From: Brevinematia bacterium
GTDB taxonomy: Bacteria; Spirochaetota; Brevinematia; Brevinematales; JAOACQ01
Assembly (NCBI GenBank): GCA_049968515.1
Contig: JBMFQR010000005.1
Span: 11,809-75,808, forward strand
DNA: 64,000 nucleotides
Direction of reading: 5' to 3'
The first letter of the stretch is position 1. The number at the start of each line of letters is the position of its first letter. Below, one piece after another: positions 1 to 57,700 of the stretch. The translations under genes were made by a program, and so were the position numbers. The notes under the pieces are model-generated. The model had not been told where the DNA came from. It did no database searches and saw nothing but the letters and a program-made list of their open reading frames with translations.

Positions 1-41
1 CAGAGGACAGTCTGTGAGAAATAAGTTAAGATAGACTTTTA
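1..41 (+). ncRNA. Partial (window-truncated) 3' module of the same structured element found at 20530-20921; hairpin AGUCUGU(9-15)/AUAGACU(31-37) followed by UUUA
   Basis: nt 1-16 match the minus strand of 20578-20593 at 14/16. nt 17-41 match the minus strand of 20529-20553 at 23/25. Both copies are in sense orientation directly upstream of a gene. Confidence 0.4.
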
Positions 42-54
42 ACAAGGAGTTTCT

Positions 55-1461
55 ATGGAAAAAGAGAAAAAGTCTGAGTTTATTTATGAAAGAAAGAATG
101 CCTGGATTGGTCAAACAGAAAGAGAAAAAAAGGTCGTGTTCGATTTCGCAGAGAATTATAAGAATTTTCTTAATCTCTGCAAGACTGAAAGAGAGTGCGT
201 GTATTTCATAGAAAAAGAGGCAAAAAAATATGGGTTTAATTATATAGAAAAGGCAAAGGGTAAACCGGGAGAGAAAATCATTCTGAAAAACTCTGAGAAG
301 AACATAATACTTGCAGTTCTTGGGAAAGAATCAATGACTGAGGGAATAAACATTGTTGTCTCTCATATTGACGCACCGAGACTTGACTTAAAGCCTCTCC
401 CACTTGTAGAGGAAAGCGATATGGCATTGTTTAAAACACACTACTATGGGGGAATAAAGAAATATCACTGGGTGAATATGCCTCTTTCTCTTCATGGTGT
501 CGTAATAAAAAGCAATGGAGAGAAAATAAATCTTGTCATAGGTGAGGACGAAGGCGATCCAGTGTTTGTCATAAATGATATTTTACCGCATCTCTCCAAG
601 AAGATTCAGGACGAGAAGAAAATTTCTGAGGCGATAGAGGGAGAAAATCTGAGGCTTCTTGTAGGTAATATGCCTGTGGACGACAAAGAAATAGAGCAGA
701 AGGTAAAAGAATATGTATTAAGAAAATTGAATGAGCTTTACGGATTGAAGGAAGAGGATTTTATCTCTGCCGAACTTGAGGTTGTACCAGCTTTTAAGGC
801 AAAGGATGTCGGTATAGATAGAAGTATGATTGGTGCATATGGTCAGGATGACAGAATCTGCAGCTATGCAAACTTCCGTGCGATTCTTGACTTTGAAGGT
901 ATCCCGGATAAGACAATTCTGAGCGTTCATATAGAAAAGGAGGAAATTGGTTCTTATGGGGTAAGTGGCATAAGATCAAAATTCCTCTATAACTCCATTG
1001 GAAGAATCTACTGCCTTGAAAAGCCAGACTATAAGGAAAGAGAACTGAGAGAATTACTTACCAGTTCTTACTGCATTTCTGCTGATGTAGGGGCTGTTAT
1101 TAATCCAATGTTCAAGGAGGTCTTTGATCCTATCAATTCTCCTAGAATGGGCTATGGTGTTTTGCTTGAAAAATACACCGGTTCAAGAGGCAAATATGGT
1201 GCAAGTGATGCTTCTGCAGAACTGATGGGAAAGGTAAGAAAGATTTACAATGACAACAACGTTATCTGGCAACCTTCACTTCTTGGCAAGGTGGATGAAG
1301 GGGGCGGTGGCACGGTTGCACTCTTCCTTGCAGACTTAGGGATAGCTGTTGTAGACTCAGGTGTAGGACTTGACGGAATGCACTCTCCTTTTGAGGTTTC
1401 AAGTAAGGCAGATCTTTATCAAGCCTACAAAGGCTATAAGGCATTCTTCAAAAATGCATAG
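55..1461 (+). CDS. M18-family aminopeptidase (aspartyl-aminopeptidase-like)
   Basis: 468-aa ORF with AAGGAG RBS at 44-49. Motifs VVSHIDAPRLDLKP and C-terminal GGGGT...GLDGMHSPFE resemble M18 zinc aminopeptidases. Confidence 0.8.
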   Translation: MEKEKKSEFIYERKNAWIGQTEREKKVVFDFAENYKNFLNLCKTERECVYFIEKEAKKYGFNYIEKAKGKPGEKIILKNSEKNIILAVLGKESMTEGINIVVSHIDAPRLDLKPLPLVEESDMALFKTHYYGGIKKYHWVNMPLSLHGVVIKSNGEKINLVIGEDEGDPVFVINDILPHLSKKIQDEKKISEAIEGENLRLLVGNMPVDDKEIEQKVKEYVLRKLNELYGLKEEDFISAELEVVPAFKAKDVGIDRSMIGAYGQDDRICSYANFRAILDFEGIPDKTILSVHIEKEEIGSYGVSGIRSKFLYNSIGRIYCLEKPDYKERELRELLTSSYCISADVGAVINPMFKEVFDPINSPRMGYGVLLEKYTGSRGKYGASDASAELMGKVRKIYNDNNVIWQPSLLGKVDEGGGGTVALFLADLGIAVVDSGVGLDGMHSPFEVSSKADLYQAYKGYKAFFKNA

Positions 1462-10943: not shown

Positions 10944-11184
10944 ATACACTCCTTCATACAAGACAGTCTGTTTTTAAAAATAGACTAACATTTTCTTATG
11001 TTTATACATGTTAGACTATTATAATATAAATCAATATGAGATGTATAGTCAAGAGAATTAAAAAATTAAATTATTCTTCCAAAAAACACTCGATTTTTTA
11101 TTTCCTTTCGATTTAATATAATAATTTACTTTAGTAAGTAAAATTTGAATGGAAACGAAAAAGTCTCCTTTATAAATAAAAGCT

Positions 11185-19171: not shown

Positions 19172-20464
19172 TTATTTTTTCCCTTTCCACAACGGTGAAT
19201 TGGTAATCTTACCAGCAATTGCTGTAGCAGCAGCAGTAGCCGGGCTCATAAGATGTACCATTCCACCCTTACCCATTCTACCATAAAAGTTTCTGTTTGT
19301 TGTTGAGGCACAGACTTCTCCTTCCGCAAGTACACCATTACTCATACCAAGACAGGCACCGCAGGTAGGATTTGTAACGCAAAAGCCAGCTTCCATAAAG
19401 ATATCTATGATGCCTTCCTTTAAAGCCATAGAGTAAACCTTTGGTGTGGCTGGCGAGAGTATTCCTCTCACATTATCAGAAATCTTTTTCCCCTTTAAAA
19501 TTTCTGCAGCAATTCTTAAATCTTCTATCCTCCCATTTGTACAGCTACCGATATAAACCTGATCAACTGGAGTCCCCTCCATCTCTCTTACTGGCTTTAC
19601 ATTATCAGGCTTATAACCAAACGTAACCATTGGCTCAAGATCGCTTAAATCATACTCCAGAACCTTTTCATACTTCGCATCCGGATCTGAAATCCACTTT
19701 GAATATTCCTTTAAAGCCTCTTCCTTAGACGAAAACTCATTCTTTATAAATGGCCAGAGATATTCAACTGTAGTCATATCTGGATAGCATATTCCAGAAG
19801 TTCCACCGGCCTCAATTGCCATATTACAGAGAGTCATCCTCGACTCCATTGACATTTCATCAACAATCGGACCAACAAACTCCATTACATGGTCTGTGGC
19901 ACCATTCACCGTTATTTGTGAGATGATGTAGAGAATTACATCCTTGGCAAAAACACCCTCTGGAAGCTTGCCTTTTAAGACAAACTTCATTGTTTTAGGA
20001 TATTTAAAGGCACAAACTCCCTTTAAGATACCAACCTCAAGGTCTGTTGTGCCAACACCGGCAGCAAATGCACCAAATGCACCATGTGTGCAGGTGTGGG
20101 AATCCCCCATTATCACTGTATAGCCCGGTCTTACAAAGCCATGCTCGGGAAAAATAGCATGACAAACACCATTTCTTCCAATGTCAAAAAAGTCTTTTAT
20201 ATTATGGCGTCTTGCCCACTCTCTTAAAATCTTACCCTGCTCTGCAGTTTTAGAATCCTTTGCTGGAGTAACATGATCTATCACTGCCTTGATTTTAGTT
20301 GGGTCAAAAACCCTATCCTTCCCTCTCGCCATAAGATCCAATATGGCTATCGGGGTAGTGATTTCATGGCAGAATACCATATCAAGCTTTAACACAAAGG
20401 TATCCTCACTTGGCTTATCAATTAAGTGAGCGTAAAAAATCTTTTCAGCTATAGTTTTACCCAT
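19172..20464 (-). CDS. leuC: 3-isopropylmalate dehydratase large subunit (aconitase family, short archaeal/HacA-like type)
   Basis: 430 aa. Motifs DHVTP, MGDSHTCTHGAFGAFAAGVG, GSCTNGR and three cluster Cys. GGAGG RBS. Confidence 0.8.
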   Translation of the reverse strand: MGKTIAEKIFYAHLIDKPSEDTFVLKLDMVFCHEITTPIAILDLMARGKDRVFDPTKIKAVIDHVTPAKDSKTAEQGKILREWARRHNIKDFFDIGRNGVCHAIFPEHGFVRPGYTVIMGDSHTCTHGAFGAFAAGVGTTDLEVGILKGVCAFKYPKTMKFVLKGKLPEGVFAKDVILYIISQITVNGATDHVMEFVGPIVDEMSMESRMTLCNMAIEAGGTSGICYPDMTTVEYLWPFIKNEFSSKEEALKEYSKWISDPDAKYEKVLEYDLSDLEPMVTFGYKPDNVKPVREMEGTPVDQVYIGSCTNGRIEDLRIAAEILKGKKISDNVRGILSPATPKVYSMALKEGIIDIFMEAGFCVTNPTCGACLGMSNGVLAEGEVCASTTNRNFYGRMGKGGMVHLMSPATAAATAIAGKITNSPLWKGKK

Positions 20465-20529
20465 TTTTGCCTCCGAATAAATTATTTGTCAAAAGTTTTC
20501 TTATCGAAAACCTTATAACCCTTCTTAAT

Positions 20530-20921
20530 AAAAGTCTATCTTAATTTCTTTCTGAACGATCAGAAAGAAAGCCAATACACAGACTACCCTCTGGCAGTCT
20601 GTCACTACGTTATCTCGCTGCTGCTGGGCATCTTCCACCCTTAGATTTCTGGTTTTGTATGCCTGTAGCAAAATTCGGACAAAACTTCACCTCCTGTGTT
20701 CGGAAGCTGAGATCAAACGATGTCTATTTTTTCGGCCATTGCCCTCGTCAACGGTAACCAAACCGAAAAATATCCATCGTTCTCAATAGCAAAAACAATA
20801 GGTTATCCTCAACGGACACGTCCCTTCAGCAAGCTCAGGGCATAGTCTGTGTCCTTAACAAGGCAATAGCATATAAAAGCAGAAATCTATGGGCTTGTCA
20901 AAGTAGCACACCAGCAGCGGC
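20530..20921 (-). ncRNA. Unclassified structured RNA / long cis-leader upstream of leuC
   Basis: No ORF of 60 aa or more. About 45% GC by hand count over 20581-20880, versus ~20% in other spacers. GC-rich 8-bp closing helix (20911-20920 with 20616-20627). 15-bp interrupted hairpin 20718-20779 with nested CCGUUG/CAAUGG. GGACAC/GUGUCC, GUUUUGU/ACAAAAC and other stems. Several pairs are G-U only when read on the minus strand. Confidence 0.55.
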
Positions 20922-20947
20922 AGAATAAAACAACAAAAAAAAAAAAA

Positions 20948-20973
20948 ACAGAGGGTCAAACTTTTACTCCTGT
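20948..20973 (-). terminator. Weak hairpin overlapping the O-methyltransferase stop, followed by a 14-nt U tract
   Basis: Minus strand ACAGGAG-12 nt-CCUCUGU (6 of 7 positions pair) followed directly by T14 (20935-20948). Confidence 0.35.
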
Positions 20974-21984
20974 AATTATACTTCTGTTTAAAATTGTAGG
21001 CATATATCTTATCTTTTTAAAACCGGTATCGGCAAGTATCTGTTCAATTTCTTTGACTGAATAGCACTTACCCTCCGACAGCACCATTAAAAGCACAGAA
21101 TATTCTGCTACAGAGAGTGGCCCGTCTTTTTTTCTGTTTATGTGAGCATCATGAATAACAATCATGCCACCATGGCTTAAGTTTCTGTAAGAATTTTCAA
21201 TTACCACCTTTACATCATTTATATCCCAATCATGCAGTACATGGGAAATTAAATGAACATCATAACCGGTCGGCAGTTCATCCTTAAACATATCTCCAGC
21301 TATTACATCCATTCTCCCAGTAAGCCCGAGTTTTTTAATAGAGTAAGTTGCAACCTTATCCACCGGAGGCTTTTCAAAAACAGTTGCTTTAAGTCCAGGA
21401 TACTTTGATAATAATAATGCAGAGTAAATTCCAGATGCCCCGCCTATATCCAGAAGACTTTTGCGGCTTTTTAAGTTCAAAGCCTTTAATAATCCATTTG
21501 CGAGATATGCTCCACGGCTGTTCATTGCAGCAGTAAAACTCTCTGCAAATTTTTCCTCCTCCATGGCAGTTGACCATTCTTTTCCATCTTTTTTAACAGC
21601 CCAGCTCGCAGGCTTACCGGTTATCAGGACATTCTTAATAGCCTCACATATAGGCCTGTCTTTAAGAGAGATTACATATGAAGAGAGATCAAAGGAAGAC
21701 TTTTTAGTTAAAAATTGTCTTGAAGTTTCGGAGAGATAAAAGACTCCATCCATCTCATTAATGAACCCATAGGCTTTAAACAATGTAAGCATAACATCTG
21801 CCGGTCTTTTTTTGATATTAAGAGAATTACAAATCCCTTCAATATCTGACGGATTTCTATCGAGAAAGTTAAAAAAGTCAAAATGACTTACAGCAGAGAT
21901 AAAAAGATCGTTCGCAAAGGAACTCTCCCTTAGCCCAAATATCCTTTTCGGTGAAACTGGCGGGATTTTAAAAAAATCCTTCAT
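20956..21984 (-). CDS. SAM-dependent O-methyltransferase (Methyltransf_2-type with N-terminal dimerisation/wHTH domain)
   Basis: 342 aa. LLDIGGASGIYS SAM motif, and C-terminal HDWD and GGMIVIHD blocks typical of small-molecule O-methyltransferases. Confidence 0.7.
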   Translation of the reverse strand: MKDFFKIPPVSPKRIFGLRESSFANDLFISAVSHFDFFNFLDRNPSDIEGICNSLNIKKRPADVMLTLFKAYGFINEMDGVFYLSETSRQFLTKKSSFDLSSYVISLKDRPICEAIKNVLITGKPASWAVKKDGKEWSTAMEEEKFAESFTAAMNSRGAYLANGLLKALNLKSRKSLLDIGGASGIYSALLLSKYPGLKATVFEKPPVDKVATYSIKKLGLTGRMDVIAGDMFKDELPTGYDVHLISHVLHDWDINDVKVVIENSYRNLSHGGMIVIHDAHINRKKDGPLSVAEYSVLLMVLSEGKCYSVKEIEQILADTGFKKIRYMPTILNRSIITGVKV

Positions 21985-22801
21985 TACTTAACTCCTACAA
22001 GAAATATTCTTTTGAACACAAGCTCTAAATATCCATCTTTATCAGCCTGATTATAAAACTCCTCTTTTATAATGATCTTAAAACATTCAATATATTCTTT
22101 TGAGATTCTTCTATTATAATACTCCTATAATACTCCTGATTTAAATATCCAGCTATTGCTCCAGATGAAAAAATATCAAATGCCTCTTCAGGAGTATATC
22201 TTGTTTTCATTGTTTTTATTTCAGAAGAAATAACCTTAAAACCAACATTCTCAAAAACAGCATTATAATCTCTGGTATTTTCAGGCATAAAAAATGGGTT
22301 TTCCCAGTTTGAAAAAACTTCACAAGTTCTTTCATCTTTTCTTACTCTCTCAACTCCCTTAAGAAAATTTTCACAGTACCTTCCCCCGCCAGGAGCCTGA
22401 ATTCCCACCCTTCCACCTTTTTTGAGGGTAGAATGAAATGCTTTCACTGCCCGGCTGGGCTCTGTAAACCATTGAAAAGTGGAATTGCAAAAGATTACAT
22501 CGAATTCATCATGAAAATTCATTTCTTCAGCCTTCATTTTACAAAATGCAATATTGTATTTGCTATAATTCTTTTTTGCAGATTTAATCATTTCTGCAGA
22601 GTCGTCTATACCCACAATTCTTCCATTTGTTTTTTTTCTTATTTGTTTTGTAAGATTTCCTGGGCCACAACCGACATCCAGAACAGATTCATTCTCTCCA
22701 ATGTTCAGTAATGAGAATAATGTTTCAGCTGCCCCTTGTTGAACAAGGGAATTTTTCTCGTAATGTCCTGACACCAAATTAAAATCAACACCCTTTGTCA
22801 T
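21984..22801 (-). pseudogene. Tam-like class I SAM methyltransferase, frameshifted by an 11-bp tandem duplication at 22115-22136
   Basis: VLDVGCGPGNLT...VGIDDSAEMI...DVIFCNSTFQW resembles trans-aconitate methyltransferase. The current frame stops at 22067. Deleting one repeat copy extends the ORF to a TAA at 21984-21986 that overlaps the next ATG. Confidence 0.6.
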
Positions 22802-22805
22802 AAAA

Positions 22806-23372
22806 CTACCTTCCAAATATCATTTTTGGCGGTGTGACCACCCAGAATGCTCTAAGCACTTTATCACTTGTATTTCTGAGTATATGAGGTACACTTGCAG
22901 AAAAAGAAATGCTATCCCCCTCATTTAAGATATAACTTTTTTTGCCTATTGTAAATTCCCCACTGCCTTCTATAATGTAGCCGAGTTCCTTGCCCGGATG
23001 ACCATATTCAGAGCTTCCCTTCTGTGCATCTGGCTGTATCTCAAGAATGTATGCCTCAATCTCATGCTTCTCATTATCAGATATTCTTGAAAGCTGATAA
23101 TACGTAACACCATTCTGAATTGTCTTACGGATGTCATCTTTTCTCACAAGGATTACATTTCCTTCCTTTTTAAAGTCAGAGAAAATGTAATCAAGATCAA
23201 TTTCAAGAACATCAATAATCTTTAAAAGAGTGTCAATGGCGGGTGAAATTTTATCCCTCTCAATTTGAGATAGAAGACTTTCACTCACCTCAAGTTTATC
23301 AGCCACATTTTTTAGGGTAAGCCCTTTCTTTTCCCTTACCCTTCTTATTTTTGAACCAAATCTATACTTCAT
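22806..23372 (-). CDS. XRE-family HTH plus cupin-domain transcriptional regulator
   Basis: N-terminal IRRVREKKGLTLKNVADKLEVSESLLSQIERDK HTH. C-terminal cupin region (GYIIEGSGEF...EGDSISF...PH). Confidence 0.8.
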   Translation of the reverse strand: MKYRFGSKIRRVREKKGLTLKNVADKLEVSESLLSQIERDKISPAIDTLLKIIDVLEIDLDYIFSDFKKEGNVILVRKDDIRKTIQNGVTYYQLSRISDNEKHEIEAYILEIQPDAQKGSSEYGHPGKELGYIIEGSGEFTIGKKSYILNEGDSISFSASVPHILRNTSDKVLRAFWVVTPPKMIFGR

Positions 23373-37518: not shown

Positions 37519-37591
37519 AGCCACCGAGCGGGATCGAACCGCTGACCCATTGATTACGAATCAATTGCTCTACCGACTGAGCTACGGTGGC
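37519..37591 (-). tRNA. tRNA-Thr (anticodon CGU)
   Basis: Manual cloverleaf: GCCACCG-TA-GCTC-AGTCGGTA-GAGC-A-ATTGA-TTCGTAA-TCAAT-GGGTC-AGCGG-TTCGATC-CCGCT-CGGTGGC-T. CCA is not encoded. Confidence 0.9.
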
Positions 37592-37837
37592 AGGGGGAAG
37601 TTTTTATATAGTGGTTTCACCACTATAAATATTCTTTCTCCGACTGAGCTACGGTGGCAGAAAGCTAAAGTTTATATCGATATTCACCACCATAAATCCT
37701 TTTACTAAACTACGGTAACATAAGCCTTAACTCTATAGTGAAATTCGCCACATAAGTTCTTGAGCTACGAGAGCAGAAAGTTTTTATGGTGATTTCACTA
37801 CTATAAAAACTTTTTCGGCTGAGCCACAGTGGCAAAG
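37592..37837 (-). repeat. Tandem array (4 units, 55-67 bp) of tRNA-Thr 5' fragment plus upstream spacer/hairpin
   Basis: 21-mer 37573-37593 is repeated exactly at 37640-37660. Degenerate copies lie at 37704-37720, 37761-37776 and 37816-37835. The spacers are homologous. Confidence 0.8.
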
Positions 37838-37890
37838 CTTTACATCCATATCTATAATTGTGTAACTTGCCTTTGGCAACTTACAATATA

Positions 37891-57306: not shown

Positions 57307-57700
57307 ACTTAAACTTTGAAATCTCCCTTCTTTTCTTCTTGTTTTCCTTTGTATTTTTCCATTCCTTTTTGTTTTCTTTTTGTTGTTGATCAAAAATCTT
57401 TACAAGCTCCTTAACTTCTTCAGGCACTTCTTCTCCACTCTTAATCTCATAAAGTTCTCTGGCAAGTTTTGATGAAATGGATTTTGCCACAATGCCTTTG
57501 ATTTCTATCTCCATATAGTGTGAGCCTTTTCTTATTGTCAATAAATCCCCTGCTTTAACCACCTTTGAAGGCTTTGTCCTTTCGCCATTGAGTTTAACAA
57601 GTCCACCTTCTATCGCCTCTGTAGCTTCATTTCTGCTTTTGTATATTCTTGCTATTTTAAGCCACTTGTCGAGTCTTAAACTCTGAGTCGCTTCTGCCAT
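57293..57700 (-). CDS. S4-domain RNA-binding protein (Hsp15/RqcP-like)
   Basis: LRLDKWLKIARIYKSRNEATEAIEGGLVKLNG S4 motif and a basic C-terminal tail. Confidence 0.75.
   Translation of the reverse strand: MAEATQSLRLDKWLKIARIYKSRNEATEAIEGGLVKLNGERTKPSKVVKAGDLLTIRKGSHYMEIEIKGIVAKSISSKLARELYEIKSGEEVPEEVKELVKIFDQQQKENKKEWKNTKENKKKRREISKFKYGKF

Follow-up and report, generated by a model that had tools for sequence, protein, structure and literature searches.

What is the short sequence that recurs at the edge of this stretch of Brevinematia DNA, and does it act on the genes that follow it? The 64 kb analysed here (the window) begin with 54 nucleotides in front of an M18 aminopeptidase gene, and part of these resembles sequence at a second locus, ~20 kb away, just upstream of leuC. 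An earlier, sequence-only reading of the window had proposed that the two are copies of one element, either a shared class of cis-regulatory RNA or a non-autonomous repeat. The explanation that we favour, at about even confidence, is a dispersed repeat peculiar to this genome, modular and with hairpins, of the MITE/BIME/BOX kind and with no dedicated regulatory role. The two genes concerned are:

Positions 55 to 1461, plus strand: M18 aminopeptidase gene, downstream of copy 1 (Pfam PF02127, E = 6e-85; 100% identical to MGC8764662.1).
Positions 19172 to 20464, minus strand: leuC (aconitase-family large subunit), downstream of copy 2 (Pfam PF00330, E = 1.5e-120; identical to MGC8764679.1).

The shared module

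The two copies can be divided into the following parts:

Positions 1 to 16, plus strand: block A of copy 1, equivalent to the final 5'-arm base of hairpin 1 with its AGAG loop and 3' arm (14/16 match to copy 2).
Positions 17 to 41, plus strand: block B of copy 1 (23/25 match), with the identical 16-mer at 26-41.
Positions 42 to 57, plus strand: native M18 ribosome-binding site (AAGGAG, 44-49) and ATG (55-57), probably outside the repeat.
Positions 20579 to 20602, minus strand: hairpin 1 of copy 2, ACAGACUGCC-AGAG-GGUAGUCUGU, 10 bp, whose loop and 3' arm are the counterpart of block A.
Positions 20545 to 20570, minus strand: hairpin 2 of copy 2, a perfect 11-bp stem built mostly from a 24-nt segment (20554-20577) that is absent in copy 1.
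Positions 20529 to 20553, minus strand: block B of copy 2, with the identical 16-mer at 20529-20544.
Positions 20475 to 20528, minus strand: 54-nt tail of the insertion described below, not common to copy 1, with a predicted hairpin 3 (20488-20519).

The matches claimed from the letters alone were reproduced exactly. Nucleotides 1-16 of the plus strand (CAGAGGACAGTCTGTG) agree with the reverse complement of 20578-20593 (CAGAGGGTAGTCTGTG) at 14 of 16 positions and nucleotides 17-41 agree with that of 20529-20553 at 23 of 25 (92%), with the 16-mer TTAAGATAGACTTTTA identical at 26-41 and 20544-20529. The extra 24 nt of the leuC copy do form a hairpin, as had been suggested: the segment contributes the 5' arm and loop, plus 2 nt of the 3' arm, to the perfect 11-bp stem at 20570-20545, the rest of the 3' arm being shared sequence. 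Both copies also have the sense orientation relative to the gene downstream, as claimed. When aligned with gaps, positions 1-49 (+) and 20593-20521 (-) share 42 of 49 identities (86%) with a single 24-nt gap, and the score of 45.5 compares with 15.6 +/- 2.6 (maximum 28.5) in 2,000 shuffles. A MAFFT alignment of the two copies put the gap elsewhere and was poorer than the block alignment.

Could the match be accidental, the genome being AT-rich, or else an artefact of assembly? We regard this as a very remote prospect. It is true that 16-mers and 25-nt blocks of such quality arise by chance in the window, and the 25-nt block taken alone is just the top of the window's chance distribution (self-BLAST score 19; other pairs 17-19). 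However, the adjoining collinear 14/16 block is unique, the best of 2,695 such tests on the flanks of chance-level pairs being 12/16, and because of this neighbour the two-block match is not a chance one; the shuffles of the gapped alignment speak against chance as well. An artefact is opposed by the position of the repeat, which is at the edge of the window and not of the contig, since gmk lies on the same contig, and by the arms of the foldback upstream of leuC, which are roughly 75-80% alike (an estimate read from the arm alignment), unlike near-perfect artefact palindromes. On the alignment evidence, nucleotides 1-41 (possibly to 49) are paralogous to 20593-20529 (possibly to 20521).

Where does the shared part end? 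The strong similarity stops at nucleotide 41, immediately 5' of the conserved native ribosome-binding site of M18, of which AGGAGTT is kept together with the ATG in three relatives (L004, L007 and L015). Past nucleotides 41-49, into the M18 ribosome-binding site and ATG, the similarity is not significant, and generic ribosome-binding-site regions match equally well. The two copies differ by whole modules, the 24-nt hairpin-2 segment and the 54-nt hairpin-3 tail being present only in copy 2. Hairpin 1 of copy 2 has a free energy of -16.4 kcal/mol (z = -3.7), and for the visible part of copy 1 the fold is not significant (z = -0.16); the remainder of the hairpin 1 5' arm in copy 1 would lie off the window.

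Several other origins for parts of copy 2 were considered and set aside. The 54-nt tail is not significantly similar either to the 5' coding part of M18 or to the 3' part of hicA, and was not retained as a relic of either. A 48-aa ORF at 20525-20671 (-) spans the module, with the 24-nt indel in frame and coding for a hydrophobic stretch (VLAFFLIV). It was rejected as a small protein for its TTG start and lack of a usable ribosome-binding site, for the perfect palindrome that the segment forms, and for an in-frame TAA at 22-24 in copy 1.

The element had been called multi-copy on the strength of these two sites. The repeat is real and has two copies, but the 64-kb window contains no third; an apparent partial copy at 57629-57661 lies inside a coding region and was judged to be chance. 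Two other features of the window are worth recording. One is a 22-nt near-perfect palindrome, AGTCTGTTTTTAAAAATAGACT, at 10965-10986, intergenic and just upstream of an ORF starting at 10961 (-), which has AGTCTG/TAGACT hexamers in common with the module, probably by coincidence. The other lies at 37592-37840 (-), upstream of tRNA-Thr(CGU) (37519-37591), and consists of about four degenerate tandem units of 62-67 nt, each made of the first ~18 nt of the tRNA and a short hairpin (TATAGTGGTGAAACCACTATA), with an exact 21-nt copy at 37640-37660; ARAGORN and Rfam call only one real tRNA in this region.

At both loci the hairpin sits between two co-directional genes, and the module could then be a common intrinsic terminator, or a generic UTR module, of otherwise unrelated transcripts. 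This is highly improbable. No U-tract follows hairpin 1 or hairpin 2 (the stem of hairpin 1 is followed by GAGAAAUAAG in copy 1 and by GUAUUGGC in copy 2), a terminator scan gave no call at the shared hairpins, and 86% identity over 49 nt indicates homology and not convergence on a generic terminator.

A lineage-specific insertion upstream of leuC

Copy 2 forms part of a larger block of non-coding sequence, whose main features are:

Positions 20475 to 20955, minus strand: lineage-specific insertion of 481 nt, between the stop TGA of the O-methyltransferase gene (20956-20958) and the leuC ribosome-binding site GGAGGCAAAAATG.
Positions 20610 to 20929, minus strand: long imperfect foldback with self-reverse-complementary arms, making up most of the insertion (insertion positions 27-346).
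Positions 20836 to 20852, minus strand: 5' insertion segment CACAGACTATGCCCTG, 17 nt, 82% complementary to block A.

Is this block an ancestral leader of leuC? The locus was compared with relatives chosen via their LeuC proteins, which are 93-96% identical. The closest of them (L012) has the same gene order as the window, namely an HTH-cupin regulator, a methyltransferase, an O-methyltransferase and leuC, and offers an empty site: the O-methyltransferase TAA is directly followed by GGAGGCAAAAATG, where the window has TGA, 481 nt and then GGAGGCAAAAATG. The gap ahead of leuC is 10 nt in this relative, without the insertion. In L008, L010 and L011, hicB-hicA replace the methyltransferases and a 20-nt gap precedes leuC; L014 has nothing between the regulator and leuC, and in L013 another gene lies upstream of leuC, 16 nt away, all again without the insertion. 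The block is thus absent from all relatives examined (L012, L008/L009, L010/L011, L013 and L014), in which leuC is preceded by 10-20 nt, and homology to them restarts about 10 nt before the leuC ATG. The empty or short sites identify the supposed leuC-upstream RNA as a lineage-specific insertion and not a conserved leader.

The site between the HTH-cupin regulator and leuC (20475-23372 in the window) is a variable hot spot across L008, L010, L011, L012, L013 and L014. It is empty in L014, holds hicB-hicA in L008, L010 and L011 and two methyltransferases in L012, and in the window contains two methyltransferases and the 481-nt block. Farther along the operon, leuC and leuD are ~330 nt apart in L010 (11290-11623) and overlapping or ~10 nt apart in L008, L012 and L014; the gap in L010 may be another small operon-junction insertion.

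The insertion is dominated by its 320-nt foldback, the top local inverted repeat in the window, which gives a self-reverse-complement hit in nhmmer at E = 1.6e-7. Compared with shuffles, the two strands of the leuC block fold to a similar degree (z = -5.3 for sense, -4.7 for antisense), and this near-equality points to a palindrome at the DNA level rather than to an evolved RNA. The insertion has no terminal inverted repeats, its ends (CCCTCTGTTTT... and ...AATAATTTATTC) not being complementary and the arms of the foldback being internal. Comparison with the L012 empty site revealed no flanking target-site duplication, the insertion contains no convincing ORF, and the plasmid and phage databases gave no match to it. 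A terminator at its 5' end, together with a T14 tract, was considered and dropped, the fold being weak and not significant.

Extra DNA at the gmk-M18 junction

Does copy 1 also lie in additional DNA? The Gmk (MGC8764661.1) and M18 (MGC8764662.1) proteins have consecutive accessions on the same 86,698-nt Brevinematia MAG contig, with gmk immediately upstream. The Gmk C-terminus, ...VLRVIES (...SCYKRVKSEVLRVIES), is unmatched in the three frames of nucleotides 1-54 (QRTVCEK*, RGQSVRNKLR*, EDSL*) and its coding sequence was not found anywhere in the window. The gmk stop codon is therefore off the window and the gmk-M18 spacer is longer than 54 nt, so that some non-coding sequence continues upstream of position 1; for hairpin 1 to be complete, this would have to include its 5' arm as a minimum.

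In five relative contigs the gmk-M18 spacers measure 9, 17, 20, 49 and 49 nt (four distinct spacers, those of 49 nt in L004 and L005 being identical), and the order rnc-yicC-gmk-M18 is kept wherever the contig is long enough. The module is present in none of these spacers (L004-L007 and L015); the 49-nt spacer of L004 was tried as an orthologue of the module and the similarity was not significant. With a spacer longer than in relatives, all of which lack the module, copy 1 is also extra DNA compared with every one of them. Under the explanation that we favour, nucleotides 1-41 (possibly to 49) would be the 3' end of a piece of extra lineage-specific DNA between gmk and M18.

How far does the sequence extend beyond this genome? 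Exact-pattern scans were run with the two-block module, hairpin 1 and a foldback arm. Among GTDB species genomes the two-block pattern gave three hits, none of them in a related phylum, with about two expected by chance (an estimate), and the one hit that was read (L003) was without the hairpin. There were no matches to the two-block pattern in viral contigs, to the hairpin-1 pattern in JGI metagenomes and viral contigs, or to the foldback arm in JGI metagenomes, and no copies in roughly 180 kb of relatives' loci. To judge from these scans and loci the element, if it is one, appears to be restricted to this lineage.

Is the module a regulatory RNA?

The first of the two proposals in the sequence-only reading, a shared cis-regulatory RNA class, would make the module a 5' UTR stem-loop plus A/U-rich element that jointly controls leuCD and M18, responding, for instance, to the supply of leucine or amino acids. 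In its favour, both copies are in sense orientation immediately 5' of a ribosome-binding site, hairpin 1 is stable, block A can pair alternatively with the distant 5' segment at 20836-20852, at the expense of hairpin 1, and a Leu-rich mini-ORF (LLFLLL) lies inside the insertion. This proposal is nevertheless improbable and found no support. The module is missing at the orthologous leuC and M18 positions in every relative examined, neither Rfam nor T-box and leader searches gave a match, and no expression platform was seen, hairpins 1 and 2 being without terminator calls. The visible part of copy 1 lacks significant structure, and the leuC block folds about as well on one strand as on the other, as a DNA palindrome does. 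For covariation there is one full copy only, with sense and antisense folding at z = -5.3 and -4.7. At the gathering score, Rfam found only tRNA-Thr in the whole window, and at E <= 10 it returned only noise, at or above E = 1, for the regions 20400-21050 and 1-150.

The mini-ORF (MSVEDNLLFLLLRT... / MSVEDNLLFLLLRTMDIFRFGYR) is located at 20748-20819 (-), upstream of leuC, and has five Leu in six codons. It starts with GTG, only ~1-2 nt after a ribosome-binding-like tract (GAAGGGA), and a run of five Leu in six codons in such a T-rich tract is plausibly due to chance (p about 0.1-0.2, our own estimate). Leaders of leu operons, such as the T-box riboswitch (RF00230) and leucine leader-peptide attenuators, resemble the insertion in being upstream of leuC, in the Leu-rich mini-ORF and in the alternative pairings that can be drawn. 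In contrast to them, the leuC block has no covariance-model match at E <= 10, is not conserved in the relatives examined, is not followed by a terminator and is an insertion, not an ancestral leader.

A more elaborate version combines regulation with insertion. The block would then be an undescribed ~480-nt Brevinematia foldback element, with interchangeable stem-loop modules, that inserts precisely between stop codon and ribosome-binding site, serves as an operon 'insulator' and leuCD attenuator, and has rewired gmk-M18 through a second copy. The features that it would call upon are the poly-U tract at the 5' end, an internal promoter-like TTGACA and the Leu-rich leader ORF (LLFLLL) with its alternative pairings. 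We consider this version, too, quite improbable.

Dispersed repeat or one-off duplication?

Each of the two loci has lineage-specific DNA behind a stop codon and ahead of the ribosome-binding site of the next gene, which reads in the same direction, and a genome-specific dispersed repeat is the most economical explanation. Such a repeat would be co-transcribed with its neighbours, forming a sense-oriented intercistronic stem-loop. It would sense nothing and would have no dedicated part in the regulation of amino-acid genes; if it affected expression at all, this would be a side effect on the stability or processing of the mRNA, or of uncoupling the gene downstream. Its origin could be either the insertion of a MITE/BIME-like element or a single ectopic duplication. 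What the analysis shows is the homology, an insertion at leuC, additional spacer DNA between gmk and M18, the lack of counterparts in the relatives and in Rfam, and palindromes at the DNA level. We infer the insertion of one kind of element at both loci, an upstream continuation of copy 1 and functional neutrality.

Several findings are at odds with a repeat family. Only two copies have been seen, one of them cut by the edge of the window, the 481-nt insertion is without terminal inverted repeats or target-site duplication, the right ends of the copies differ, copy 2 having 54 more inserted nucleotides, and neither the pattern scans nor the loci of relatives yielded a related copy. Might the module have been copied only once? 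In this alternative, which is possible though on balance doubtful, the gmk-M18 junction was transferred by ectopic duplication or templated insertion into mosaic filler upstream of leuC, and no mobile family exists. The spacer would have been copied, perhaps with the last codons of gmk, and local inverted duplications would then have produced hairpin 2 and the large foldback. The small number of copies, the lack of terminal inverted repeats and target-site duplication and the absence of related copies in the scans are all in line with it, as is the fact that the homologous part of copy 2 is internal to the insertion and not at its end.

One argument for a single duplication would come from the 120 nt that directly precede the shared block in copy 2. 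With one frameshift they encode EFCYRHTKPEILRV, which resembles the Gmk C-terminus ESCYKRVKSEVLRV with a score of 38. In a restricted and partly post-hoc test this score was reached by none of 5,000 shuffles and none of 2,112 natural tiles, but without the restriction the match is not significant, being reached by 65 of 1,000 shuffles and 18 of 127 other window tiles. Nor is it seen at the nucleotide level against gmk of the relatives, and the divergence is the wrong way round, a neutral spacer being 86% identical and the adjacent Gmk-like coding piece only ~57% identical at the protein level. Furthermore, the short module-free spacers of the five relative contigs make copy 1 itself extra DNA and not an ancestral spacer, and in the M18 ribosome-binding site, ATG and coding region the similarity is no longer significant.

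The Gmk-like stretch corresponds to 20636-20676 (-) in the 3' arm of the foldback and is a 14-residue frameshifted match to the MAG's own Gmk. Searches for a gmk pseudogene in the leuC block with Gmk proteins or gmk DNA of the relatives gave no hit.

The sequence-only reading is thus partly supported. Its second proposal, a non-autonomous repeat element, is compatible with everything found; mobility is unproven, and a one-off duplication fits the observations about as well as a mobile repeat.

The value of the result is mainly corrective. A 'leuC leader' that looks structured, together with its 'second copy', might have entered the catalogues as a new riboswitch-like class, and both are inserted, lineage-specific DNA with palindromes at the DNA level. 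Should further copies turn up in the complete genome, Brevinematia would have its first described family of small intergenic repeats, which could mark recent genome plasticity at operon junctions. The matter is of modest interest to specialists.

Comparison with known repeat elements

Bacterial modular intergenic hairpin repeats include REP/BIME of enterobacteria, BOX of pneumococcus, ERIC and Correia/NEMIS. The module described here has no sequence relationship to any of them, and it is present in two copies (within 64 kb) where these families have tens to hundreds. The GTAG/CTAC signature of REP is found in copy 2 (GGTAG) and not in copy 1 (GACAG), and no RAYT or transposase was identified for the module within the window. 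With respect to MITEs and foldback elements, the differences are the lack of inverted repeats at the termini of the insertion and of a target-site duplication, and that no parent IS was found.

The likenesses concern architecture and distribution. As in MITEs and foldback elements, the insertion is non-coding, a few hundred nucleotides long, intergenic and extensively self-complementary (the 320-nt foldback). Its presence is polymorphic, with a clean empty site in a close relative (L012) and short gmk-M18 spacers without the module in the relatives at the other locus; such presence/absence polymorphism among close relatives is shared with REP/BIME, BOX, ERIC and Correia/NEMIS. Like these, the module involves short imperfect palindromes in an intercistronic or 3'-UTR position, in fixed orientation and probably co-transcribed, hairpin 1 being a stable short intercistronic palindrome. 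The copies also differ by the presence or absence of whole sub-modules, as in BOX: there it is the copy number of boxB that varies, and here it is hairpin 2 and the hairpin-3 tail that distinguish the leuC copy from the one upstream of M18.
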